This document shows, piece by piece, positions 9,761-53,408 of a stretch of DNA of 57,160 bases. The notes beneath the pieces were generated by a model that saw only the letters and a program-made list of their open reading frames with translations, ran no database searches and was not told the origin of the DNA. Position 1 is the first letter of the stretch, and every line of letters begins with the position of its first letter. Source of the stretch: an uncultured archaeon (lineage in GTDB: Archaea > Aenigmatarchaeota > Aenigmatarchaeia > CG10238-14 > EX4484-224); the NCBI GenBank assembly GCA_964524025.1, contig CAZGBT010000001.1:1-57160 (forward strand), written 5' to 3'. A program made the position numbers and the translations under genes.

Positions 9761-10915
9761 TTAATTTCTATTTCTATATTTTATTTCGACTAACCTTTCT
9801 ACACCGAGTGCAAAACCTGTGGCTGGCACGTCCTTCTCAATCCCATATCTTCTTAAGAAGTTACCGATTAGACCATCATACCTCCCTCCTCCACCAACTT
9901 CTGGGTATGTTTTTTCGCAACCTATAATGTCAAACTGGACTACGAGTGAGGTATAGTACTCCCATCCTCTTATCATGGCGGGATCGAAAATGCAGCCTAC
10001 GCCACGCTTTTTCAATTCCTGAAGAAATTCTTTTAACATCTCTAGATTAATTCCTACAACTTCCTCTATCATTTTGATTTCACCAATGCCTCCTGTTAGG
10101 GAATAAACGCATCTCCAAGCTTCTTTCATCTTATTAGGCAAATTTTTAATCTTCCGCTCGATTTTTTGTTGGAGGTCTTCTATATTCATTCTCATTACTC
10201 TTAATTTGGATAATTTGTCGAGGTATTCCTTCATCCTACCCCTTTCCTCTAAGGTGTAGTAGCTATTTTTGCACAATGTTTTAAAGATATTAACATCACT
10301 TACCCTAAGAGAGACTTTGCCTGGAAAGAGTTTAGAGAGCAGCGTGTAGCCAAGAAAGAAAACCTCTATGTCAGCATCTAGGCTTGGATTACCAACGTAC
10401 TCTATCCCTATCTGAGTAAATTCTCTTCGCTTTGTTGGACTTAGCTTGCTTATATCCTCGTTTCTAAAGCAAGTGATAATATAGTATACTTTTAAAGGCA
10501 AGAATACCGAAGGACTAACTCCTTTTGCAATTAGTTTGGCGATAAACCTGCAAAGAGATGCTGTACCTTCAGGTCTTAGAACGCATAGATACGACTTAAT
10601 AGGTTTTTCGTATTCAAAGTCTGTAACGCGCACCAGGAAAAAGTCCCTCTTGACTCTTCTGATTGGTTCCTCTGGTCTCACTTCTCTTTCTGTCCATGGT
10701 ACTGTAAGTAAGTCGCTTGAAAGAGCTTCTGTGAATGTTTCAATCCTCTCTAAGGTTGGTGGTATGTATTCCTGGTATTCGTAAGTTTCAAAAAGCTCTC
10801 TTGCTAGTTTTTCTATTTCTCGCTGTATTCTTACTTTTTCTCCTATTCTATCGTCAAATCCTAGAGGCGGTGATAGCTTTGTAAGAAGTATATCTCTCAT
10901 AATCTCACCTGGCAA
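9761..10915 (-). CDS. histidyl-tRNA synthetase-like class II paralog (HisZ-like; no anticodon-binding domain)
   Basis: Class II motif 2-like (CFRNEDISKLSPTKRREFTQIGIEYVG) and HisRS motif 3 (GGGGRYDGLIGNF...PATGFALGVERL). At 384 aa it ends right after the catalytic core. Confidence 0.65.
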   Translation of the reverse strand: MPGEIMRDILLTKLSPPLGFDDRIGEKVRIQREIEKLARELFETYEYQEYIPPTLERIETFTEALSSDLLTVPWTEREVRPEEPIRRVKRDFFLVRVTDFEYEKPIKSYLCVLRPEGTASLCRFIAKLIAKGVSPSVFLPLKVYYIITCFRNEDISKLSPTKRREFTQIGIEYVGNPSLDADIEVFFLGYTLLSKLFPGKVSLRVSDVNIFKTLCKNSYYTLEERGRMKEYLDKLSKLRVMRMNIEDLQQKIERKIKNLPNKMKEAWRCVYSLTGGIGEIKMIEEVVGINLEMLKEFLQELKKRGVGCIFDPAMIRGWEYYTSLVVQFDIIGCEKTYPEVGGGGRYDGLIGNFLRRYGIEKDVPATGFALGVERLVEIKYRNRN

Positions 10916-11376: not shown

Positions 11377-12681
11377 ATGAAGTTTGATACTTCTCCAGTA
11401 AAAGGAACTAGAGATTTTTTACCAGAAGAAATGATCTTAAGACAGAAAATAATAGAGAAAATAAAAAACATTTTTGAAATTTTTGGTTTTTCACCCCTTG
11501 AAACTCCTGCTTTAGAAAAATGGGAAATTTTAGCTGCAAAAGGTGCAGGAGGAAGCGAAGTACTTAAAGAAACTTATAGGTTTAAGGATAAAGGCGGAAG
11601 AGATATAGGTTTGAGATACGATCTAACAGTTCCTTTAGCAAGAGTTATAGCTAATAACCCAAATTTACAACTTCCTTTTAAAAGATACCAAATACAAAAG
11701 GTTTGGAGGTACGGAGATGTAAAAAGAGGAAGGCTTAGAGAATTTTTACAATGCGACATAGATATAGTAGGAACAGAAAATTTAGTTGCTGACGCAGAAG
11801 TTATTGCTTGCGCTGTTAAAGTTTTGGAAGAACTAGGATTTAAAAACTTTTTTGTGAGGCTAAATAGCAGAAAGCTTTTAACTGCTTTAGTAATTTATGC
11901 AGGTATTTCTAAAGAAAAAGCGCTGGAAGTTTTCAGAAGTATAGATAAGTTAGATAAAATAGGATTAGATGGCGTAAAAGAGGAATTAAAGGAAAAAGGT
12001 TTTAGCAAACAGCAAATTTCTAAAATAGAAGAATTTTTGAAAATTTCTGGAGAACCTTTTGAAATCCTAAAGCAAGCAGAGAAGCTAGTAGGTGAAATAG
12101 AAGAAGGAAAAAGTGGTATAAAAGAGTTAAGAGAATTAGTTGAATATTTAAAGGAATTTGGAGTATACGATAAAATAAGGCTTGATTTGAGTTTGGCAAG
12201 AGGTTTGGATTATTATACAGGCCCTATTTTCGAAATATGGTGTGAAGAAAGAGGAATAGGAAGTTTAGCCGGCGGCGGTAGGTATGATGAACTAATAGGA
12301 TTGTTTGCTGGAAGGAAAGTACCAGCTACCGGAATAAGCTTGGGAATAGAAAGGATACTAGAAATTCTTAAGGAGAGAACCAAAAAAATTGAAAAAACTA
12401 AAGTTAAAGTTTTTGTCGCAGCAGCTACTGACGATGTGAAAAAAGATGTTTTTAAAATCGTCAAGATGTTGAGGGAAAATGGGATAAAAACAGATTTTGA
12501 CCTAAAAGGAAGGAAACTCAAAAGGCAACTTGAATATGCAGATTCCTTGCAAATTCCGTTTGTTGTTATAGTAGGAAAAGAAGAGTTAAAAGAGGATTGC
12601 GTTAGGTTAAGGGATATGAGAAAAAGGGAAGAAAGGAAAGTTAAAATAAATGAACTAATTCAAACTTTAACAAAATCCTAA
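11377..12681 (+). CDS. hisS: histidyl-tRNA synthetase
   Basis: N-terminal GTRDFLPEEM, motif 2 (RYGDVKRGRLREFLQCDIDIVG), motif 3 (GGGRYDELIGLF...PATGISLGIERI) and a C-terminal anticodon-binding domain. Confidence 0.9.
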   Translation: MKFDTSPVKGTRDFLPEEMILRQKIIEKIKNIFEIFGFSPLETPALEKWEILAAKGAGGSEVLKETYRFKDKGGRDIGLRYDLTVPLARVIANNPNLQLPFKRYQIQKVWRYGDVKRGRLREFLQCDIDIVGTENLVADAEVIACAVKVLEELGFKNFFVRLNSRKLLTALVIYAGISKEKALEVFRSIDKLDKIGLDGVKEELKEKGFSKQQISKIEEFLKISGEPFEILKQAEKLVGEIEEGKSGIKELRELVEYLKEFGVYDKIRLDLSLARGLDYYTGPIFEIWCEERGIGSLAGGGRYDELIGLFAGRKVPATGISLGIERILEILKERTKKIEKTKVKVFVAAATDDVKKDVFKIVKMLRENGIKTDFDLKGRKLKRQLEYADSLQIPFVVIVGKEELKEDCVRLRDMRKREERKVKINELIQTLTKS

Positions 12682-14523: not shown

Positions 14524-14824
14524 ACTTTCCCAGTTTCTTCCTAATTTTTTCACAAAGCATGCAAACATTTTTTTGGAATTCTTGTTCGGAGAGGTCTGAA
14601 AAGGTTAATCTTATAGAAAATTCCTCTAACTCCTTTTTTGCTATTTCCATTATTTTCTGAACTAGCTTCCCCCTTTTTTTTGCGACGTATTGAGAAACAG
14701 CTGGCTGGGTTATCCTTAATTTTCTTGAAATATCTGTTTGAGTGAAACCTTTTTCGAGCAATCTTTTAGCTACATAAGATCTAATTGCTGGTAATATGTA
14801 TTTGGATACAAACTCACACTTCAT
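14501..14824 (-). CDS. small HTH transcriptional regulator (XRE-like; heads the suf operon)
   Basis: HTH segment (FTQTDISRKLRITQPAVSQYVAKKRG) and a C-terminal CxxC (CMLC). Its start codon abuts the 15-bp palindrome at 14824-14838. Confidence 0.7.
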   Translation of the reverse strand: MKCEFVSKYILPAIRSYVAKRLLEKGFTQTDISRKLRITQPAVSQYVAKKRGKLVQKIMEIAKKELEEFSIRLTFSDLSEQEFQKNVCMLCEKIRKKLGKYAESRVR

Positions 14825-14838
14825 ATAACAGTGTTATA
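14824..14838. promoter_or_regulatory. palindrome TATAACAGTGTTATA (member of the TATAAC-N3-GTTATA family)
   Basis: Perfect 15-bp palindrome read from the sequence. It overlaps the regulator start codon by 1 nt and lies 36 nt upstream of the ATG at 14875. Confidence 0.55.
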
Positions 14839-18817: not shown

Positions 18818-21800
18818 ATGGTAAAGTTGGAAAGCGAAATAGAAGAATACAAGATTGAGATAAAGACTTGGATAAAAAAAATTAGGAAGAGAGACGGAAG
18901 AATAGTAGATTTTGACCCATCGAGAATAGCTAATGCAATTTGGAAGGCTGCAAAAGCAGTTGGCGGTAAAGATAAGAGAAGACCTTGGGAACTTGCAAAA
19001 CAAGTTGTTGAGTTATTGGAAAAAAAGCTGAAACCTGGTGAAATACCGAGTGTTGAGCAAGTTCAAGATCTAGTAGAAAAGGTTTTGGTCGAAAATGGTC
19101 ATTATAAAACTGCTAAAGCTTATATACTTTACAGACAAAAAAGGGCCGAGGCAAGGAAAGCTTGCGCAATTTTAGGCGTAAAAGACGACTTAAAACTTCC
19201 TTTAAATACTATAGTTATTTTAGCAGCTCGCTATTTGCTAAGGGATGAAAATAGGAATATAATAGAAACACCAAGTCAGCTTTTTAGAAGAGTTGCTAGA
19301 GCAATAGCTGAAGTAGAAAAACGATATGGTAAATCTGACGAATACGTTAAAGAATTGGAAGAGAAGTTTTACGAATTAATGACCTCTTTTAAGTTCCTCC
19401 CCAATTCTCCTACTCTTATGAACGCAGGAACTGGTAAGAATTTAACTTTAAGTGCATGTTTTGTTATTCCGATAGAAGACGATATGGAAAGTATTTTTGA
19501 AGCGTTAAAAACGATGGCTCTAGTACAGAAGGCAGGTGGTGGATGCATAGATGGGAAAGCAAAAATAGTTTTTGAAAACGATTCTGAATTTCATGTTTTA
19601 TCGCTAGAAGATTTTTATCAAAAATACAAAGGAAATGAGTTTTACGATGCAAAATATGATAGGTATGGTATTGACGTTAGGAATAAAAATATTTATGTTT
19701 ACTCCTTTGACCCTAAAAGGAAAAGAGTTGTTAAAGGTAAAGTGCAATTCATCTGGAAGTATATATTAGGCGAGAACGTTAAAAAGTTTTCAATCATAAC
19801 TAAGAAGGGAACTAGAATAATAACATCGCCTTGGCATCCATTTTTTGTTTTAACACCAAACTTTGAGATAATTCAAAAAAGAGCTGATGAGCTACAGAAA
19901 AACGATATGATCATAGGCTCCTTACCGATAGAAGAAATAGGTTTTAATTTCGATTATTGGCTTTTAGGTTTTATAACTGGAGATGGTTGTATAGGCAAGT
20001 ACAAGAATAAAAATTACGAGACTTGTAGGATAAGAATTTACGATAATGTAAAAGAAACTTTAGAAAAGATAAATGCGCATTTGGAAAGGAAATTTGGGAA
20101 GAAGTATGCAATTCAGAAAGATAGGAATATATTCTACATAGATATTAAAACACCAAAAGTTACTTCTTACTATTTAAAGTTGAAAAAGAAGGTTTTCAAG
20201 AATAAAATCTCAGCCCTTTCATTCATCGCTGGTTTATTTGATGCAGAAGGTTACGTTGGGAAGAAACCTTCTCTTCAACTTTCAACTGTCAAAAAAAGTT
20301 TGATGGAGAAAATAGCCTATTTGTTAAATTCTTTAGGAATAAAGGCTAGAATAAGGGAGAAGAAAAGAAAGGACGGAAAAGATTATGTAATACATATAGA
20401 AGAATACAGTGCAATCTTAAGGTTTTATGAACTAATAGGGAAACATTTGCAAAGAGAAGATAAGAAAAAGAAGTTAGTTTCAATACTAAGAAAAAGCAAG
20501 GGAGGATCTTTCGGTTTGCCTTTAAATTTTGAGGAATTTAAAAAGATAATGTCAAGATTTGGTGTTAGTTTTAAAACTAATGGCAACCAAACTTTAGCTA
20601 TTTTTAAGAACAAAAAGCTGTCGCTAGGTCAATGGCATAAAAGAGGGGTTGTTGCAAAATCTACTCTAGTAAGATTTTTAAAAGAAATAGAAGGGAATGT
20701 AATGGAAATTAAAAATTTGAGAAAGCTTATAGAATCTGTTGAAACTGTTAAGTCGATTTCTGCTAATACTGCTAAAGCAATCTTTTATGATTTGACGGTT
20801 AAAGACTACCAAAATTATTTAGCAGGAGATGGTGGTTTGGTTTTTATCCATAATACTGGATTTGATTTTTCGAAATTAAGACCTAGAGGAGATGTTGTAA
20901 AATCTACAGGAGGCATAGCTTCGGGACCAATTTCTTTTATGAAAATTTTCGATGCAGCAACTGAACAAATAAAACAAGGCGGAAAGCGTCGTGGAGCTAA
21001 CATGGGAATTTTAAGAGTAGATCATCCAGACATTCTTGATTTTATAGTTTGTAAGGAAAGAGAAGGAGAATTGAGGAATTTCAACATCTCGGTTGCTGTT
21101 ACAGACGATTTCATGAGGGCGGTCGAAAGAGACGAAGAAATAGACCTTATAAACCCAAGAACCAAAAAGCCAGTTAAAAGGATAAAAGCCAGAGTTATTT
21201 GGAATTTAATGGCAACTATGGCTTGGAAGAATGGAGAACCAGGAATTATATTTATAGATACAATAAACAAATACAATCCAACTCCGCATGTTGGAAGAAT
21301 CGAAGCAACTAACCCATGTGGAGAACAACCTCTTTTACCCTATGAAAGCTGCAATTTGGGTTCAATCAATCTTTCGAAATTCGTCGAAGACGGTAAGATA
21401 AAGTGGGAAGAATTAAGAGAAACTGTTAGGTTAGCTGTTAGGTTTTTGGATAACGTGATAGATGCAAATTCCTATCCAATACCAGAAATAGAAAAAGCAA
21501 CAAAGGCTAACAGAAAAATTGGTTTGGGTGTTATGGGATTTGCAGATATGCTAATTAAACTTGGAATTCCTTACAACTCAGAGAAAGCCTTAGAAATTGC
21601 AGAAAAGGTTATGAAATTTATAAGCGAGGAAGCGAGAAAGATGAGTGTTGAATTAGGGAAGGAGAAAGGAAACTTCCCAAACTTTAAAGGGAGCACCTGG
21701 GAGAAGAAAGGTTATAAGTATATGAGAAATGCTACAGTAACAACTATAGCTCCAACTGGTACTATAAGCGAAATAGCCGGTTGTTCTCAAGGTATAGAGC

Positions 21801-22267
21801 CTTTATTTGCTATTGCTTACGTTAGAAATGTAAAGGAAAGTTTGGGTTACGATTTGACTGTTATAAATCCTTTATTTGAAATGATAGCTATTCAAAGGGG
21901 TTTCTATTCAGACGAACTTATAAAAAAGATAGCAAGGAGTACTTCTATTCAGCATATAAAAGAAATACCAGAAGATGTTAGAAGGATTTTTGTTACAGCT
22001 TTAGACATAGCACCAGAATGGCATGTTAGGATGCAAGCAGCATTTCAGAAATATACAGATAATGCAGTAAGCAAAACTGTTAATTTACCTTATGACGCAA
22101 CACCAGAGGATGTTGAAAGGATATTTATGCTTGCCTGGAAACTTGGTTGTAAAGGGATTACTGTTTATAGGTTTGGCAGCAGAAAAGTGCAAGTTATAAA
22201 GACGCTTGCAGAAGGAGGCCCTATTACTCCTGAAAGTTTTTCGAGGTGTCCAAGCTGTGAGTTATGA
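18818..22267 (+). CDS. nrdJ: adenosylcobalamin-dependent (class II) ribonucleotide reductase with N-terminal ATP-cone, interrupted by an intein
   Basis: ATP-cone ([23 protein letters not shown]). Motifs [17 protein letters not shown]|...|[13 protein letters not shown]...[16 protein letters not shown]...[10 protein letters not shown]-terminal Cys pair (CPSCEL). Confidence 0.8.
19544..20854 (+). mobile_element. intein (437 aa) with LAGLIDADG homing-endonuclease domain inside nrdJ
   Basis: It starts with Cys (CIDGKAKIV) right after the extein KAGGG and ends VFIHN, followed by +1 Thr ([10 protein letters not shown]). It has two LAGLIDADG motifs ([11 protein letters not shown]; [12 protein letters not shown]) and a block-B-like TSPWHPFF. 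Removing it restores the conserved GGGTGFDFS extein motif. Confidence 0.85.
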
Positions 22268-39802: not shown

Positions 39803-40456
39803 TTAGGGATTGTCGTTAAGTAGCTTGCTTAATTTTTCACTTATTTCTTTTACAATTTTTTCTGGCGGAATGTCAACGCTTTCACATTTTATTTCTATGA
39901 ATTTTACGCCTTGTTTTCTAAGAAATTCCTTTACAGGTTTTGTCATTTCTTCGTAAATTCTAAATCTTTCTTTTATAATTTCTGGTTCATCGTCTTCCCT
40001 TCTCACCAATTTTCCTCCACAGACGTCACAAATTCCTTCAACCTTTGGCTTTAAGAACCTTAGATTATAAACCTTGCCACATTTTTCACAAACAACTCTT
40101 GAAGATAATCTTTCGACTATTACCCATTCAGGAACTAAAAGGTCTATTATGGCATCTATTTTTGTTATAGAAAGCAAAAATTTTGCTTGGTTAAGAGTTC
40201 TCGGGTATCCATCAAGAATAAAACCTTTTACTTTTTCTATTTTTTCTTTAACTACTTCATTTACTATCTCATCAGGAACAAGCTCTCCTTTTTCTACGTA
40301 TTTTTTTACTTCTTTCCCTAACTCGCTACCTTTTTTAATTTCCTCCCTGAATATATCGCCAGTTGAGATGTGCTCAATTCCAAAAATTTCTTTTAGACGA
40401 GAAGAATAAGTTCCCTTTCCAGAACCTGGAGGCCCAAAGATTATCAGTTTTAACAT
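39803..40456 (-). CDS. adk: adenylate kinase (long, zinc-lid type)
   Basis: P-loop (GPPGSGKGT), GDIFR, DGYPRT and a lid with CEKCGKVYN...CDVCGGKL. Confidence 0.9.
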   Translation of the reverse strand: MLKLIIFGPPGSGKGTYSSRLKEIFGIEHISTGDIFREEIKKGSELGKEVKKYVEKGELVPDEIVNEVVKEKIEKVKGFILDGYPRTLNQAKFLLSITKIDAIIDLLVPEWVIVERLSSRVVCEKCGKVYNLRFLKPKVEGICDVCGGKLVRREDDEPEIIKERFRIYEEMTKPVKEFLRKQGVKFIEIKCESVDIPPEKIVKEISEKLSKLLNDNP

Positions 40457-40644
40457 TAATAAAGTTTATACTTGAGCAGATTTATGGGTTATCAAATTCG
40501 TCTTTGAAAAATGGTTTGGATTATCCTGAATAAGGGTATACAGTATTTTCTGGTGTTAAATAAGAGTCTGTCTTCTCTGAATTTAGATATTGCCAAGTCG
40601 ATTAATACGGATATATAAGCTAAGTTTAAATTTAGTTTTGAGAA

Positions 40645-40744
40645 GCCGGGGTAGTTCAGCGGCAGAACGCCGGACTCATATCCAATGAGTTGCGATAGAT
40701 GAGCGAGATATCCGGAGACGGGGGTTCGAATCCCTCCCCCGGCA
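40645..40744 (+). tRNA. tRNA-Met/Ile2 (anticodon CAU, elongator-type) with a 29-nt intron at the canonical 37/38 position
   Basis: Acceptor GCCGGGG/CCCCGGC+A, D arm GTTC-AGCGGCA-GAAC. The anticodon stem CCGGA...TCCGG is restored only if 40681-40709 is removed, giving the loop CTCATAA. T arm GGGGG-TTCGAAT-CCCTC. The G1:C72 pair argues against an initiator. Confidence 0.85.
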
Positions 40745-41031
40745 TTTTAGTTTTTTGGATGTTAACAGTAAATAACCACGCTTTTTTTAGCAGAAATTAT
40801 TTATAATCAATTTTTTGGTTCGATAGGAATCAGTACTAAAGAGATGGAAAAAGTAAAACGGTTTTAACATTGAGTTTAACATAAAGGTTTTTATATTTTG
40901 TTTCACTTATTTTTATTACTGAAAAAGAATAAAAGCATAACCTAAGTATTCAACTATCTTTGAAGAGAAAAGAAAAAGAATACGAAAAACTTGTAGTTAT
41001 TTGTCTTCCTTTCTTGAGAGAATTCCCTAAA

Positions 41032-41152
41032 GGAGAGGCCGTCTCCGCTGAGAGGCGACCTCTCCGGGGAAGGGAGGTGTGGTTTTCACACCTCCCCCCA
41101 CCCCCGGCCTTAGAAAGGAAGTTGGGGGTGCAACGCACCCCCCGCCGCGGGG
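41032..41152 (+). other. array of GC-rich stem-loops forming the 5' flank/leader of the GC-rich ORF
   Basis: Hairpin A at 41032-41065 (GGAGAGG...CCTCTCC, about 13 bp, imperfect). Hairpin B at 41072-41096 (GGGAGGTGTG-gtttt-CACACCTCCC, 10 bp, perfect). Hairpin C at 41124-41142 (GGGGGTGC-aac-GCACCCCC). An overlapping hairpin D at 41139-41152 (CCCCG-ccg-CGGGG). Confidence 0.5.
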
Positions 41153-41181
41153 TCTGGGAAGGCAGGGAGAAATAGGAAGCC

Positions 41182-42909
41182 ATGTGGTGGAACTGGTGGA
41201 TAGGTGGGGTCTCCTGGGGGGTCTACGCGTTCCTCTTTACGTACTTACTGTGGCGAGATGAATGGACCGGAAGACGAAGACCGAAGAGGAGTCTCCTTGT
41301 TGGACTCCTCTTCGTCGGCGTGGGAGCAGGTGTAGGTCTGGCAGCTGCAAGAGTCCCATTGCACCTCTTCGTCATCAACGCTGTGGTACTTCCGCCAATT
41401 GTCATACTCGCTGTACTGGCTATAATAGCTGCGGTGGGCTGGTTGGGTGAACGCGGCCATGAGATGCTATCCATCGTACTGGTATCCCTCCTGATTGCCT
41501 CATCCATCCTTGGAGGATGGCTTCTTATGCGAAACATCAGATACGCCAATGCAGAGGAGTTCAAGGGGTATATCCGCTACGAGCAAGGCACGGTCGACAT
41601 CTTCCCAGAGATAGACCCTTCGCAGCTTAGGCTGACCACGGCTGAGATAGCAAAAAGCATAGCTGAGATGAAGAAGACGAGTGCTGCCAGCAAGGTATTA
41701 AGCGTCCACCTAGGTATCTACGAAGGCGAGTTGTGCTGGATAGCGACACTAAGCGAAAAACCCTATCTAGGTATGCTGATAGGGAAGTCCAACAGAGTAC
41801 GTGAGATTGTAGTAGTGCCCGTCAACGACTGCACCGGCGAGGAAGCCTTCACAGTTCCGCTGTCCACAGGGGTTGGGGAGAATCTATGGTTCGACCGGGA
41901 TATGCTTGTCTATGCTCAGTACAACTATCCATACCGTACGTTCACACGTGCATACCTAACATGGTCGCCAGAATACGACACTCTCGTCTGGATAACAACT
42001 AGCTACTATGAAAAGCCGTATGGGCCCCTCGTGGATCCAAGAGTAGAGGTATGGTCGCTCGATGGACGACTGTTAGCTCAGTACACACCGTGGGAGGCCC
42101 CTGGATGGGTTGTACAGCGTTGGGACGAGCGATGGCTCGAGAGCGTAGGAGACTCCTTTGGCGACTTCCGATGGGATGAACAAAACAACTTGAACTTCTG
42201 GAATGGCATACCTCGACCATCTGACAGATCGGCCGACCCTGACGAAGAAATGAGGTACCAACGGTGGTCTGGGGAGATAGTAGGAGTCCTTCTCTTCCAC
42301 AACAAACTAAATCCAAGTCTGCTCGAGTTCGTCGTCATAGCGCATCGAAACGGCATATACCTCTACAGCCTACACAACCTAGCTCTAATAACACCTACAG
42401 AGGCGAAGAAGGTGGCGCTTGCCGGCCTTCCTGCGTTGCCAAAGGGACGTGAGTACGCAACACCGTTAGCCCTCCTCTACCGAATAGGGAGCCACCTGTA
42501 TTATCACATCCCGGTGTTCGTTAAGGAAGGAGAACGTTACTTACCAGCATACTTCGTGCTCGTGAGAGCCACTGATAGGCGGTGCATACGGATAAGCTGC
42601 GCGGAGGTAGGAGGAATGAGGGAGGCTGTGTTAGCTGCCTACCAGGAGGTGGGCAGGATACCTAAAGTCCCGGAAGAGCGTAAGGTGACTGGTATACTAA
42701 CGCGGAAGTTGGTTTACACCAAGGAGGGCAACAGCCGGATATGGCTAGAGCTCCGGATAGGAAACGAAACGGAGTGGTTCCTGGCCAAAGCTGAAGTACT
42801 CGACGACGAGGACGTCCGCGACCTGCTCCTCGCCGAGCCTGGATGGGAGCTGGTGCTACTAGTCTCACCAGACAACGAAGTTCTCGACGTCTTGGAAGCC
42901 CATCCGTAA
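41182..42909 (+). CDS. hypothetical membrane protein (575 aa; 4 N-terminal TM helices plus a large W/Y-rich soluble domain), compositionally foreign
   Basis: It is the longest ORF in the ~60% GC island, and the other ORFs there are nested or antisense. N-terminus MWWNWWIGGVSWGVYAFLF, followed by three more hydrophobic helices. No family recognised. The C-terminal LYYHIPVFVKEGERYLPAYFVLV...REAVLAAY is only faintly reminiscent of UPF0182/COG1615. Confidence 0.6.
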   Translation: MWWNWWIGGVSWGVYAFLFTYLLWRDEWTGRRRPKRSLLVGLLFVGVGAGVGLAAARVPLHLFVINAVVLPPIVILAVLAIIAAVGWLGERGHEMLSIVLVSLLIASSILGGWLLMRNIRYANAEEFKGYIRYEQGTVDIFPEIDPSQLRLTTAEIAKSIAEMKKTSAASKVLSVHLGIYEGELCWIATLSEKPYLGMLIGKSNRVREIVVVPVNDCTGEEAFTVPLSTGVGENLWFDRDMLVYAQYNYPYRTFTRAYLTWSPEYDTLVWITTSYYEKPYGPLVDPRVEVWSLDGRLLAQYTPWEAPGWVVQRWDERWLESVGDSFGDFRWDEQNNLNFWNGIPRPSDRSADPDEEMRYQRWSGEIVGVLLFHNKLNPSLLEFVVIAHRNGIYLYSLHNLALITPTEAKKVALAGLPALPKGREYATPLALLYRIGSHLYYHIPVFVKEGERYLPAYFVLVRATDRRCIRISCAEVGGMREAVLAAYQEVGRIPKVPEERKVTGILTRKLVYTKEGNSRIWLELRIGNETEWFLAKAEVLDDEDVRDLLLAEPGWELVLLVSPDNEVLDVLEAHP

Positions 42910-42952
42910 GCACCATCCCTACGTAGACCCCCCCATTTTATTTTTTCTTTTA

Positions 42953-42969
42953 TTATAACACTGTTATAA
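42953..42969. promoter_or_regulatory. palindrome TTATAACACTGTTATAA (TATAAC-N3-GTTATA family)
   Basis: Perfect 17-bp palindrome. Its 15-bp core ends 39 nt upstream of the deoxyhypusine synthase ATG (43008). It lies about 20 bp after the right edge of the GC island. Confidence 0.5.
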
Positions 42970-43007
42970 ATTTTTAAATCGAATATAACATCCTTAATAA
43001 AAATTTA

Positions 43008-43928
43008 ATGAAAACTGTAAAGGATTTTGAGTTGGAAAAAATAGAAACCTTCTCTCAACTTTTGCAACAAATGAAAGATTCGGCTGGCTTTAACGCAAAA
43101 TTTTTGGCAGAAGCTTTTGAAATTTTAAAGGAAATGCTAAGAGATGGTAAATGCTTGAAATTTCTTTCCTTTCCTGCTTGCATAATAGCTACTGGAACTA
43201 GAGGAATAATAAGAGATTTTGTTAAGAAAAAGTGGTTCGATGTGGTTATAACAACTTGCGGAACTTTAGACCATGATTTGGCGAGGAGTTTTAAACCCTA
43301 TTATCATGGAACTTTTTTTGCTGACGATTTTGAGTTAGCTGAAAAAGGAGTTCATAGACTTGGTAATATCTTCGTTCCAAAAGAAAGTTACGGTATTATA
43401 ATAGAGAAAAAAATGAAAGAATTTTTACCAGAAATTTGGAGGGAAAAGAAAGAATTGGCAACTTATGAGCTTTGCTGGGAATTAGGCAAAAGGATAAATA
43501 ATGAAAACTCAATTCTTTACTGGGCCTATAAGAATAAAATACCGATCATAGTGCCTGGAATTACAGACGGTGCAGTTGGCTATCAAATCTGGGAGTTTAG
43601 CCAGGACCACGATTTTAAGATTAACGTTTTGAAGGATGAACAACTCTTAAGCGATTTAATTTGGAATGCAGAAAGAAGTGGAGCTTTAATTTTGGGTGGT
43701 GGAATCTCAAAACATCATGTAATTTGGTGGAATCAATTTAAAAAAGGTTTGGATTATGCAGTTTATATAACGACAGCAACCGAATGGGACGGAAGCTTAA
43801 GCGGAGCAAGACCTAGGGAAGCTGTAAGTTGGGGGAAGATAAAGAAAAAAGCTAGATTCACTTTTGTTATATGCGATGTTACAATTGCATTACCAATTCT
43901 TTATAAAGGTTTGCTAGAAGTTATTTGA
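43008..43928 (+). CDS. dys: deoxyhypusine synthase
   Basis: Motifs FLSFPACIIATGTRGIIRDFVKKKWFDVVITTCGTLDHDL, ILGGGISKHHV and EAVSWGKI. Confidence 0.85.
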   Translation: MKTVKDFELEKIETFSQLLQQMKDSAGFNAKFLAEAFEILKEMLRDGKCLKFLSFPACIIATGTRGIIRDFVKKKWFDVVITTCGTLDHDLARSFKPYYHGTFFADDFELAEKGVHRLGNIFVPKESYGIIIEKKMKEFLPEIWREKKELATYELCWELGKRINNENSILYWAYKNKIPIIVPGITDGAVGYQIWEFSQDHDFKINVLKDEQLLSDLIWNAERSGALILGGGISKHHVIWWNQFKKGLDYAVYITTATEWDGSLSGARPREAVSWGKIKKKARFTFVICDVTIALPILYKGLLEVI

Positions 43929-43984
43929 AATGTGATGTCAATAAAGTAAGTTTGTTTTTCTTCGTAAAATTATAAAAAACTGAT

Positions 43985-44254
43985 TTAAATCTCCCCACAT
44001 TCTTTAAGCCAATTATCTATAGCTTTTTTAATATCGACTACAACAACTTCTCCGCTTGGTAGAGTTCTCTTAATAGTTAGCGGAATCAGTTTTTTCTTGA
44101 ATTCCTCTTTAGCTATTTCAACAGGACTTTTCTTATCTTTTTTTACCAAAACCGGGGCTCCTAACGCAATTTGTAAAGCTCTGGCAGAGATTATTCTAGC
44201 TACTTCGAAGCGGGTTAGTCTATCCTTTGGCCAAATCAGTTTCTCACCTCTCAA
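43985..44254 (-). CDS. rpoK: DNA-directed RNA polymerase subunit K (Rpo6)
   Basis: Core motif ([25 protein letters not shown]). It lies directly downstream of rpoN, as in other archaea. Confidence 0.85.
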
Positions 44255-44256
44255 TT

Positions 44257-44451
44257 TTACATCTTGAATTTTGCTACCTCCTTAAGCAAGTCTACATGTC
44301 CTAAAAATAGTTGCCTGCAGCAAAACCTTTTTAAACCTAGGTCATCTAGAACTTTCTTTGGATCCTCCCCCTTTTCTACCCTTTTCTTAAATTCTTCCCA
44401 TAGATGTCCAACAACCTTTCCGCAGCTAAAACATCTAACAGGAATAATCAT
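44257..44451 (-). CDS. rpoN: DNA-directed RNA polymerase subunit N (Rpo10)
   Basis: [21 protein letters not shown]...[14 protein letters not shown] is a canonical Rpo10 zinc bundle. Confidence 0.9.
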
Positions 44452-45238: not shown

Positions 45239-45255
45239 TTATAACACTGTTATAA
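45239..45255. repeat. palindrome TTATAACACTGTTATAA (19 bp if flanking A/T are included), between convergent genes
   Basis: It is identical to the 17-mers at 42953 and 47598. It occupies most of the 24-bp gap between the stop of 44497..45231 (+) and the stop of 45256..45591 (-). Confidence 0.5.
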
Positions 45256-45591
45256 TCAAATTTCCTTTACTTCGCCTTTTTCGACTATAACTAAAGGCCT
45301 TGACTCAACCAAAGCTCTTGTTATTTTCTTTCTGGCATTTTCCAGTAATCTCCATAAAGTTCCTCTAGAGGTATTCATCCTTTTTGCAGCCTCTTCTTGC
45401 TTCAAGTTTTCAAGATCGACAAGCCTTAAGGCTTCTAATTCTGGATAGCTTAATTCAATGGGGTTTGGGTTTAAGCAAGGATTAGGTATAAATTCCTTTA
45501 CTTTTGGTAAATGATAGAGGATTAAAGGGGAAAAAGGCCTTCCTGGGCCAAACCTACGCATACACCATCTCCATCTCCTTCTCCACCTCAC
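45256..45591 (-). CDS. DUF134 (UPF0251) family DNA-binding protein
   Basis: Family core (ELEALRLVDLENLKQEEAAKRMNTSRGTLWRLLENARKKITRALVE). The N-terminus is R/W-rich (MRWRRRWRWCMRRFGPGRP). Confidence 0.75.
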   Translation of the reverse strand: MRWRRRWRWCMRRFGPGRPFSPLILYHLPKVKEFIPNPCLNPNPIELSYPELEALRLVDLENLKQEEAAKRMNTSRGTLWRLLENARKKITRALVESRPLVIVEKGEVKEI

Positions 45592-45673
45592 AATTTTTAT
45601 TTTAACTTGAAAAAATTAATTGCAATCGCACAAAATTATATTTTCCATTAGCGAAATCTTTAAATATTTGCAT

Positions 45674-45695
45674 ATGCACAAAAAATTTTGTGCAT
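45674..45695. promoter_or_regulatory. inverted repeat ATGCACAAAA-aa-TTTTGTGCAT (candidate operator), with an extra GCACAAAA half-site at 45628-45635
   Basis: Read from the sequence. It lies in the divergent intergenic region between the DUF134 gene (start 45591, minus) and the DUF5320-like gene (ATG 45716, plus). It overlaps the palindrome TGCATATGCA (45669-45678). Confidence 0.4.
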
Positions 45696-45715
45696 ACGCT
45701 AAAAAAGGTGAGAAT

Positions 45716-46120
45716 ATGCCATGGGGATGGGGTTGGGGAAGAGGTTGGAGATGGGGATTTTGGCTAACAGGAATGCCAGGATGGATGAGATGGACTTACT
45801 TTAGCTATAATTATCCAGTAACAGCCTATCCATGGTTCTGGAGATGCAGATGGTTTCCATGGCTGCCAAGATGGTGGTGGACAGGAATGTATGGGCCAGT
45901 AGTCTGGACACCGCAAGGGCCTTTCCTTCAATCTCAATTAACTTTTCAGCCTCAGCAATCTTTTCAACCCTTTTTCCAGCCTTCACCTCAAGATGAGTTG
46001 AGTTACTTAGAAAATGAGCTAAAAATGCTTGAGGAAGAGAGAAAAGCAATAGAAAAAGAAATAGAAAGCATAAAGAAGAGAATAGAAGAATTAAAGCAAA
46101 AGACTAGCTTTAATATCTAG
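45716..46120 (+). CDS. DUF5320-like protein with extremely Trp-rich N-terminal region and C-terminal coiled coil
   Basis: The ATG at 45716 is preceded by GGTGA. MPWGWGWGRGWRWGFWLTGMPGWMRW...PWFWRCRWFPWLPRWWWTGMYGPVVW has 16 Trp in about 66 residues. A Q/P/F-rich linker and the coiled coil ELSYLENELKMLEEERKAIEKEIESIKKRIEELKQK follow. The position after a DUF134 gene and before a NifX-like gene matches the usual DUF5320 context. Confidence 0.6.
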   Translation: MPWGWGWGRGWRWGFWLTGMPGWMRWTYFSYNYPVTAYPWFWRCRWFPWLPRWWWTGMYGPVVWTPQGPFLQSQLTFQPQQSFQPFFQPSPQDELSYLENELKMLEEERKAIEKEIESIKKRIEELKQKTSFNI

Positions 46121-47597: not shown

Positions 47598-47614
47598 TTA
47601 TAACACTGTTATAA
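47598..47614. promoter_or_regulatory. palindrome TTATAACACTGTTATAA (TATAAC-N3-GTTATA family)
   Basis: Perfect 17-bp palindrome. Its 15-bp core ends 36 nt upstream of the ATG at 47650. It is preceded by a T-rich tract similar to the one before the 42953 copy. Confidence 0.5.
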
Positions 47615-52495: not shown

Positions 52496-52529
52496 TAATT
52501 AATAGTAAAGCGAAAGGGGTAAAAAATCG

Positions 52530-53408
52530 CTAGTGAAAGACTCTGAGATTAAAGAATTTGAAAGAAGAAAGTAACTTAGCTAAATTTGTAACGCTTAAAT
52601 TATTCTTTCCATTTTCAAAATCCCTTATAGCTTCTCTACTAACTCCAATTAGCTTAGCTGCTTCCTTTTGGGTTAAACCCAACTTCTTTCTAAATTCTTT
52701 AAATCTAAGCAATAAACCAAGTTTTGGTATGTTTGAAATTATTTTTATCCATTCATCCCCTTTAGGCCATTTTTCTTTTAAATAATGAATTCTTGATCCT
52801 CTTCCTTTCCTTCCAGTTATGCAATTTTCAATTTCCTTAGGAGGTTTAAAACCTATTAATTTGAAGAAATTGTAAACTGTTGCATCAGAAGTTTTTGACA
52901 AAAGTGCATAGCCACATTCCTTGCCTCTCTTAAACCCACTTCTGTACTTTACTGCATAAAAATTTAAGCCAAGCTCTTTGAGTTTTTGGATTAGAAATTC
53001 TACATCTTCTTTTCTAAAATTGTTTGTAGCTAAAACTATCCAAGGAACTCTATTTGGATCGGGATGTCTAACTAAACTTCCGTCACCAATGTACCAGAAA
53101 AGTAGGGTTGTTGGGGTAAGTTCTAAATCTCTTGGAACTACCTTTTGTGTTTTACCATTAATTTTGGTATACAATCTTCTTCTTAATCGGATAAAAAGTT
53201 CGTGGGATGTGTACAACGAATAAGTTTCATTCCTTCTATCAAAAGTAAAGTAACATCGTAATCCCCATCTTTCCAGTTTGCTTTTAATCCACTCTAAAAG
53301 TTTCTTGTCTTTTGCCGTTACTTTTAGCCGACAGTATTTGTTTTTGTCGATTGTTATGCAACCGTCTCCTAGGAGAAGTCCATTAATAATGTCTTCTAAT
53401 TTATCCAT
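52530..53408 (-). CDS. free-standing double-motif LAGLIDADG endonuclease-like protein fused to a C-terminal XRE-type HTH
   Basis: LAGLIDADG motifs (INGLLLGDGCI; LLFWYIGDGSL) and a C-terminal HTH (LGLTQKEAAKLIGVSREAIRDFENGKNNLSV). Confidence 0.7.
   Translation of the reverse strand: MDKLEDIINGLLLGDGCITIDKNKYCRLKVTAKDKKLLEWIKSKLERWGLRCYFTFDRRNETYSLYTSHELFIRLRRRLYTKINGKTQKVVPRDLELTPTTLLFWYIGDGSLVRHPDPNRVPWIVLATNNFRKEDVEFLIQKLKELGLNFYAVKYRSGFKRGKECGYALLSKTSDATVYNFFKLIGFKPPKEIENCITGRKGRGSRIHYLKEKWPKGDEWIKIISNIPKLGLLLRFKEFRKKLGLTQKEAAKLIGVSREAIRDFENGKNNLSVTNLAKLLSSFKFFNLRVFH

Follow-up and report, generated by a model that had tools for sequence, protein, structure and literature searches.

A GC-rich single-gene island in an AT-rich Aenigmatarchaeota genome: a probable recent acquisition from another archaeon

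How does a single GC-rich gene come to lie within an AT-rich archaeal genome? The question is raised by a stretch of 57,160 nucleotides from an uncultured archaeon of the Aenigmatarchaeota (assembly GCA_964524025.1, contig CAZGBT010000001.1, positions 1–57,160; hereafter referred to as the window), in which a segment of ∼1.9 kb, the island, carries one gene for a membrane protein of 575 amino acids. In this assembly, the island is located between a tRNA-Met gene and dys, the gene for deoxyhypusine synthase. A first-pass annotation, made from the letters of the sequence, had proposed three explanations for it: a very recent transfer from a high-GC donor, a GC-rich gene maintained by selection, or a chimera of metagenome assembly. 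From the analysis described below, I conclude that the gene is likely a genuine horizontal acquisition, probably through the recent insertion of DNA from a GC-richer archaeon.

The windowed GC, tetranucleotide and codon-usage profiles that had been suggested as checks all set the island apart from the host DNA. A two-state likelihood analysis placed the maximum-likelihood change points at positions 41025 (GC 0.25 to 0.60) and 42935 (0.58 to 0.30), which bears out the sharp switches first read at about 41031 and 42934; the hand counts given with them, 36/60 G+C for 41281–41340 and 18/60 for 43021–43080, are exact. In 200-nucleotide windows, the GC content is 0.24 at 40800–40999 and 0.605 at 41000–41199, remains at 0.49–0.60 until 42899, and is 0.31 thereafter. 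Over the segment 41031–42934 it amounts to 54.6%, compared with 32.8% for the remainder of the window. The description of the island as having ∼60% GC therefore applies to its first ∼300 nucleotides (61.7%), but not to the whole segment, nor to the coding sequence (CDS; 53.4%); the 151-nucleotide leader that precedes the CDS reaches 66.2%. The island is the sole long GC-rich segment in the window, as the remaining peaks of ≥45% GC span only 150–300 nucleotides; three of them coincide with the window's three tRNA genes, and the others are minor. Its tetranucleotide distance to the window mean is the largest found (0.81, for a median of 0.20).

The gene itself is equally foreign to its surroundings. 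The GC content at third codon positions (GC3) is 0.592, against 0.250 ± 0.034 in 50 host open reading frames (ORFs), a difference of ∼10 standard deviations, in agreement with the initial impression of GC3-rich codons. CGN codons account for 64% of its Arg codons but 8% of those of the host, and the choice of Leu and Ile codons is also foreign to the host. The encoded protein contains 3.3% Lys, against 11.8% in host proteins, and is enriched in Trp, Arg, Ala and Pro. Its relative synonymous codon usage shows a correlation of −0.21 with that of host genes, and of +0.34 to +0.47 with that of genes from the 55–59% GC Bathyarchaeota-type contigs that carry homologs. The island thus combines deviant composition and codon usage with discrete boundaries, as a horizontally acquired compositional island does.

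A word-seeded HMMER search identified 28 homologs at 41–61% identity, all of similar length (∼570–660 amino acids) and without Pfam domains. The named members belong to the Bathyarchaeota, Odinarchaeota and Baldrarchaeota, on contigs of up to 1.19 Mb. This family of ∼600-residue archaeal proteins is rare, with 87 sequences at E ≤ 1e-3 (15 of these at ≤ 1e-30) in an exhaustive profile search of 1.84 billion representative proteins. The island protein possesses every residue that is invariant in the family. In all eight of the other genomic contexts (genomes of 36–65% GC), the GC content of the homolog is within 4 points of that of its flanks, and the homologs found in low-GC genomes are themselves of low GC (37–40%, GC3 0.27–0.32). 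Gene order is also retained within lineages: in one pair of loci (L003 and L168) a gene for a helix-turn-helix (HTH) protein, a histone gene and the S17e gene are found downstream, and in another (L002 and L169) a DUF87 ATPase gene is found upstream and a CDP-alcohol phosphatidyltransferase gene downstream. This synteny, and the match in GC to the flanks, indicate that, in those lineages, the family resides on the chromosome and is passed on vertically. The homologs are therefore native-looking in other lineages, and none is present in the related dys loci that were fetched.

The search for donor lineages recommended in the first-pass annotation thus pointed to the Bathyarchaeota, Odinarchaeota and Baldrarchaeota, and one contig with a native copy (L170, k141_157267) co-occurs with the genome of the window, in the same ENA assembly. 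This contig is of ∼55% GC, and its copy of the gene of 56% GC, with a GC3 of 0.61. It was considered as the donor, and rejected, as its product is only 52% identical to the island protein. In a neighbour-joining tree, the island protein forms a long solitary branch beside a Bathyarchaeota/Baldrarchaeota clade, suggesting that the donor lineage is unsampled. Composition, codon and amino-acid usage, and native homologs of matching GC in eight genomes, nonetheless all support the first of the three explanations, a recent transfer from a higher-GC donor.

The matches of its genes place the host among the Aenigmatarchaeota (DPANN). The best named matches of its ProRS are from Candidatus Aenigmatarchaeota (71–75% identity), with the identical ProRS sequence recorded on a contig of 120.5 kb; its dys is 73% identical to that of a metagenome-assembled genome (MAG) of a hot-spring Aenigmatarchaeota, and relatives of its adk, rpoN and rpoK are found mainly in loci labelled as Aenigmatarchaeota. 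On the right side, the physical linkage of the foreign gene to this DNA is solid. JGI contig Ga0190367_1012537, which is present in Logan as well, spans positions 41167–44165 of the window, from which it differs by a C-to-T change at 42899 (A573V) and by a run of six C instead of seven, with a third non-matching column near 44160. ENA contig k141_44336 (16 kb, assembled by MEGAHIT) also starts at 41167, and extends across dys, rpoK and rpoN into more genes of the host. The order seen in these contigs is the island gene, a 98-nucleotide spacer, dys and rpoK. More than one assembler thus recovered the right junction, and did so for two variants of the strain, which largely excludes a chimera as the source of the linkage between the gene and the host.

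The features of the locus, with the strand in parentheses, are the following:

39803–40456 (−): adk, to the left of the tRNA-Met gene
40645–40744 (+): host tRNA-Met(CAT) gene with a 29-nucleotide intron in the anticodon loop, its 3′ end towards the island (Rfam RF00005, 63.1 bits; ARAGORN with the intron option)
40737–40755 (+): left copy of a 19-nucleotide imperfect direct repeat, CCCCGGCATTTTAGTTTTT, consisting of the last 8 nucleotides of the tRNA and its T-rich flank (repeat search)
40745–41030 (unstranded): AT-rich, host-like spacer of 286 nucleotides, 25.5% GC, which opens with the oligo-T terminator of the tRNA (composition)
40983–41166 (unstranded): stretch of 184 nucleotides (48 AT-rich, then 136 of GC-rich hairpins), absent from all other assemblies, which holds the left junction (contig ends)
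41031–41181 (+): structured leader preceding the foreign gene, 151 nucleotides, 66% GC (RNA fold, inverted repeat)
41182–42909 (+): foreign CDS, 575 amino acids, intact (ORF call, 28 homologs, AlphaFold model, GC3)
42910–42934 (+): GC-rich (68%) 3′ tail of the island, 25 nucleotides, ending in C7 (C6 in other assemblies; composition, contig comparison)
42928–42946 (+): right copy of the imperfect repeat, CCCCCCCATTTTATTTTTT, which lies across the right composition boundary and also forms a terminator-like oligo-T run behind the CDS
42935–43007 (+): host intergenic DNA, 12% GC, upstream of dys (composition)
42954–42968: host palindrome TATAACACTGTTATA, 20 nucleotides beyond the right edge of the island
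43008–43928 (+): dys, the host deoxyhypusine synthase gene and right neighbour of the island (PF01916 annotation in loci L001 and L166; 73% identical to an Aenigmatarchaeota MAG)

The tRNA-Met gene is not detected by ARAGORN at default settings, and is found only with the intron option or with Rfam. The statement that the island lies next to a tRNA was right about the tRNA, which is real, but this tRNA is 286 nucleotides away from the GC boundary, and its adjacency is seen on the window's own contig only. The claim of one credible gene, for a membrane protein of 575 residues, stands: the CDS at 41182–42909 encodes a protein with four predicted transmembrane (TM) helices at the N-terminus. Its leader includes three stem-loops (41032–41065, 41072–41096 and 41124–41142), and the RNA fold computed for 41020–41190 has an energy of −86.8 kcal/mol (z = −3.9), with none of 200 shuffles equally stable. 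At gathering thresholds, Rfam identified three tRNAs only over the window, and no match in the leader. Copies of the leader and spacer were searched for with blastn-short against the window and all fetched loci, which gave only chance matches of 15–16 nucleotides, and no leader-like sequence was seen upstream of the homologs in the fetched contexts. A perfect 12-nucleotide inverted repeat, GGGGGGTCTACG / CGTAGACCCCCC (41216–41227 / 42922–42933), brackets the CDS, one arm being just inside its 5′ end and the other just past the stop codon; roughly 0.1–0.3 such pairs would be expected by chance in 1.9 kb.

On the right side, the palindrome belongs to a 15-nucleotide motif, TATAACA[C/G]TGTTATA, with four copies in the window (14824–14838, 42954–42968, 45240–45254 and 47599–47613) against 0 expected from 100 shuffles. 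Because it recurs across the window, the right flank behaves as host DNA. At least two copies are intergenic, one upstream of dys and one between a radical-SAM gene and a DUF134 gene, and the motif looks like a candidate operator for a host transcription factor. Two odd ORFs are also found in this part of the window. The first, at 45256–45591 (−), encodes a DUF134 protein with an Arg/Trp-rich N-terminus (MRWRRRWRWCMRR...), and the second, at 45620–46120 (+), a 166-residue protein with many Trp, Gly and Arg residues (MPWGWGWGRGWRWGFW...); it is within this second ORF that the GC content rises to ∼47% (45701–46000).

A structural model of the island protein was generated with AlphaFold2 from the 28-sequence alignment (pLDDT 83, pTM 0.70). 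It possesses four N-terminal helices (residues 2–128), followed by a ∼450-residue region that is almost all-β. The first loop, RDEWTGRRRPKRS, carries six Lys and Arg residues by hand count and would be cytoplasmic by the positive-inside rule, placing the large β-rich domain outside. The gene would thus encode a membrane-anchored protein whose β-rich domain probably faces outward. Foldseek searches of the PDB produced only weak matches, to five- and six-bladed propellers (GH43, sialidase) and to OB-like folds (TM-score < 0.27, rmsd > 19 Å), and assigning a function by fold was rejected on this account. As the family profile also matches one WD40-type blade of designed propellers among PDB sequences, there is a weak suggestion that the domain could be propeller-like. 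The BFVD entry A0A6G5YLZ4, a viral protein of 588 amino acids, is a full-length structural match to the model (Foldseek E 7.8e-19, TM-score 0.52).

Despite the lack of Pfam domains in the family, the distant members recovered in the profile search include bona fide, full-length UPF0182 proteins (P0120 and P0121) that score above the PF03699 cut-off and share the C-terminal ∼140 residues, and hhalign reports a probability of 98% between the C-terminal domain of the island family and a UPF0182 member. The island protein has no match to PF03699 at E ≤ 1, and none that reaches the gathering score. By these alignments, the island family is distantly related to UPF0182 through its C-terminal domain.

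Overall, I propose that an intergenic region of this AT-rich genome received, fairly recently, ∼1.9 kb of foreign DNA, the Aenigmatarchaeota archaeon being the recipient and a GC-richer archaeon the source. The donor would probably be a Bathyarchaeia- or Asgard-type lineage of ∼50–60% GC, living in the same hydrothermal community. The inserted piece would comprise one intact gene, its 151-nucleotide leader and a 25-nucleotide tail. It would now be followed by dys and, as assembled here, preceded by tRNA-Met. The gene would keep the codon and amino-acid usage of the donor because there has been too little time for amelioration. As to the route, the insertion may have been illegitimate or microhomology-mediated, with donor DNA obtained via cell contact, or else the island may be what remains of a larger element, the rest having been lost. 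These routes are favoured here, and classical integration at the tRNA by an integrase seems less likely.

Several observations weigh against this proposal. The nearest homolog is only 57–61% identical, and the branch of the island protein in the tree is long and shared with no other member. The argument for a recent event comes from composition. The nearest sampled relatives of the host are distant (dys 73% and ProRS 75% identical), the dys/adk locus is rearranged, and no empty site was seen. Such a site, with tRNA-Met directly followed by dys, had been suggested as a check in related genomes; a scan for dys in genome and metagenome contigs identified only the same locus (L001 = L084), or relatives at most 73% identical, and no empty site among them. 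In the nearest Aenigmatarchaeota MAGs (L004–L007, L009 and L012) dys is followed by a convergent adk, whereas in the window (39803–44451) adk is upstream of dys, on the opposite strand, with the tRNA and the island in between; this different order indicates that the locus is rearranged relative to the relatives. No homolog of the island gene was seen near the related dys loci that were fetched, copies of the same locus aside, an absence that was checked locally and not genome-wide. Finally, the left junction is inside the 184-nucleotide stretch at 40983–41166, which three other contigs fail to cross.

A more specific scenario can be envisaged, in which an episymbiotic Aenigmatarchaeote captured the gene of an envelope protein very recently and directly from its Bathyarchaeia- or Asgard-type partner, as naked or cell-bridge DNA and without a mobile element, and now uses it at the symbiont-host interface. 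I regard this as unlikely. If true, the unameliorated island would be a molecular pointer to the host lineage, and the leader (66% GC), with its dense hairpins, would not be donor junk but either a functional RNA or a recombination structure.

In the first-pass annotation, the tRNA 3′ end and the right edge of the island were compared to remnants of att sites. The corresponding hypothesis is that an integrative element entered the 3′ end of tRNA-Met through site-specific recombination, leaving attL (40730–40756) and attR (42915–42946), and subsequently lost its integrase and other genes. In its favour are tRNA-Met on the left, its 3′ end towards the island, and a direct repeat exactly at this 3′ end and at the right composition edge. 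The best ungapped match between the two copies is 16/19, and is the sole one with ≤3 mismatches in the 57 kb, on both strands, with 0.05 expected. Its rank corresponds to p ∼0.001 among all 51-nucleotide windows, and ∼0.0025 among 1,570 ORF 3′ ends of AT-rich archaeal loci (range ∼0.001–0.003). A weak third match resembling the tRNA 3′ end (13/15) is present in the leader.

However, dinucleotide-preserving shuffles of the right edge score as well as the real repeat in 58 of 3000 cases (p ∼0.02), and the match in the leader is equalled in 121 of 3000. The shared sequence consists of a C-run and T4-A-T6, and is of low complexity and terminator-like; archaeal genes and tRNA genes typically end in such oligo-T termination runs. 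Only 8 of the 19 nucleotides are tRNA sequence, and including the motif ATCCCT requires an indel of 5–7 nucleotides. The att-like repeat exists as it had been written, but its significance is marginal, and an origin as attL/attR is not established. The foreign DNA also does not start at the tRNA, since 286 nucleotides of host-like, 25% GC DNA separate the tRNA end at 40744 from the boundary at 41025–41031, and an insert that is unameliorated, and hence recent, should show near-perfect att copies. Moreover, the adjacency to the tRNA hangs on a left join seen in one contig, and I consider it probable that the island adjoins tRNA-Met. The absence of mobility genes noted at the outset holds, with no integrase or transposase domain found in the genes called over ∼10 kb to its left and to its right, and the only gene of the island has no Pfam, NCBIfam or PHROG match. 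On balance, integration at the tRNA appears decidedly improbable.

The sole mobility-related gene nearby is ∼9.6 kb to the right of the island, at ∼52529–53407 (−) of the window (11363–12241 of L166), next to the gene for ribosomal protein S9. It encodes a 292-residue protein with LAGLIDADG_2 and HTH_3 domains, an apparent free-standing homing endonuclease. Elsewhere in the window, the gene for the large subunit of ribonucleotide reductase (18818–22267, +; 1149 amino acids) is split by an intein, which contains a Stirrup domain along with a homing endonuclease of the LAGLIDADG/PI-PfuI type. Two adjacent HisRS-like genes are also present (9761–10915, −, and 11377–12681, +), one for a full HisRS with its anticodon-binding domain, and the other for a shorter paralog that encompasses only the catalytic core, like HisZ.

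The second of the original explanations was that the gene is an old resident, whose high GC content has been preserved because it is advantageous, for instance by making the mRNA or the protein more stable at high temperature. The long isolated branch of the protein and the strongly structured leader would be compatible with this, but the homologs in low-GC genomes function without a high GC content, and as homolog GC tracks genome GC, selection for high GC is ruled out for the family in those lineages. The GC excess is in addition concentrated at synonymous third positions (0.59 versus 0.25), and no homolog was found in the related Aenigmatarchaeota loci fetched. It is thus very improbable that the gene is a long-standing resident.

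There is equally little to recommend the third, in which the GC-rich gene of another organism was joined in silico to an AT-rich contig, as an artefact of assembly or binning. It is true that no other assembly continues across the left edge: ENA k141_202075 (50.4 kb) stops at 40982 and Logan SRR7051321_71514 at 40983, while the contigs on the other side start at 41167. The spacer is joined to host genes in ENA and Logan contigs for positions 40745–40982/3, and 40983–41166, with the left composition switch, is present in the window's own contig only. High-GC archaea with homologs are also found in the same ENA assembly (L003, from a Bathyarchaeia, and L170). Against this, the right junction is continuous in the JGI/Logan contig and in the 16-kb MEGAHIT contig, in two sequence variants, and no other contig contains this exact gene in a high-GC context. 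The end points do not depend on k either, as they are the same in the Logan contigs, which are built at k = 31, and in those of MEGAHIT at k = 141. A repeat was for this reason rejected as the cause of the breaks, which point instead to drop-out over hairpins of −87 kcal/mol, and not to a false join. The most economical explanation is that the breaks are probably due to the loss of reads over very stable GC hairpins, and the locus illustrates how a short, hairpin-rich GC segment can break several metagenome assemblies at the same base. A chimera is therefore largely excluded for the link between gene and host, notably by the contigs with the A573V variant, and the left junction rests on the window's contig; as an account of the gene as a whole, a false join is hardly credible.

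An origin from a viral mobile element was rejected, as a scan of IMG/VR with the family profile, PHROGs, a tblastn search of INPHARED and a search of viral contigs for exact copies of hairpin 2 identified no sequence relatives, although the BFVD entry mentioned above does match in structure.

The proposal of a recent insertion from a GC-richer archaeon can be compared with known systems. Like the tRNA-targeted integrative elements and genomic islands of archaea and bacteria, which employ a tyrosine recombinase and are flanked by att direct repeats, the island is located downstream of a tRNA 3′ end in this assembly, is of foreign composition, and is accompanied by an imperfect direct repeat, one copy being at the end of the tRNA and the other at the far edge. 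Unlike these, it contains no integrase, its repeat is of low complexity and matches at 16/19, 286 nucleotides of host-like DNA separate it from the tRNA, and its cargo is a single gene.

At the protein level, the comparison is with the UPF0182 proteins, which are described as possessing seven TM helices and a periplasmic dome, and have been linked to FtsH regulation in Actinobacteria (2026 preprint, bioRxiv 10.1101/2025.11.14.688347). The island protein resembles them in its predicted architecture, where a TM bundle at the N-terminus precedes a large β-rich domain, and in its homologous C-terminal ∼140 residues. It differs in its four predicted TM helices, in its length (∼575–610 amino acids, rather than ∼900–1000), and in that only the C-terminal domain can be aligned. 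The family deserves characterisation: it numbers ∼87 representatives in 1.84 billion proteins, lacks a Pfam domain, and has its C-terminal domain in common with UPF0182. Unameliorated single-gene transfers into DPANN genomes are also among the few sequence-only clues to the partners of uncultured episymbionts, and the organism to which this island points, as a partner or a neighbour, would have ∼55% GC and possess a rare membrane-protein family with a β-rich domain.

DPANN archaea are known to acquire genes horizontally from TACK, Asgard or Euryarchaeota partners that co-occur with them. In one example, horizontal gene transfer (HGT) into Ca. Aenigmarchaeota has been inferred statistically from TACK and Euryarchaeota, with Ca. 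Bathyarchaeota as the second-largest donor group, accounting for 7.5% of the inferred HGTs (Li et al., 2021, mSystems, PMC8407114). The case described here is similar, in that the recipient is an Aenigmatarchaeota of a thermal habitat, and that it is in Bathyarchaeota and Asgard archaea that the gene family otherwise occurs. In contrast to the donor assignments of that study, the best match of the island protein is only 57–61% identical, and its family is uncharacterised. And where the earlier transfers were identified from HGTector-type best-hit statistics, this one is seen as an unameliorated step in composition at one locus, with boundaries at the base-pair level. The island requires no new mechanism, and would represent a particularly clean example of the transfer of a single gene, here for an envelope-type protein, with a right boundary defined to the base pair.

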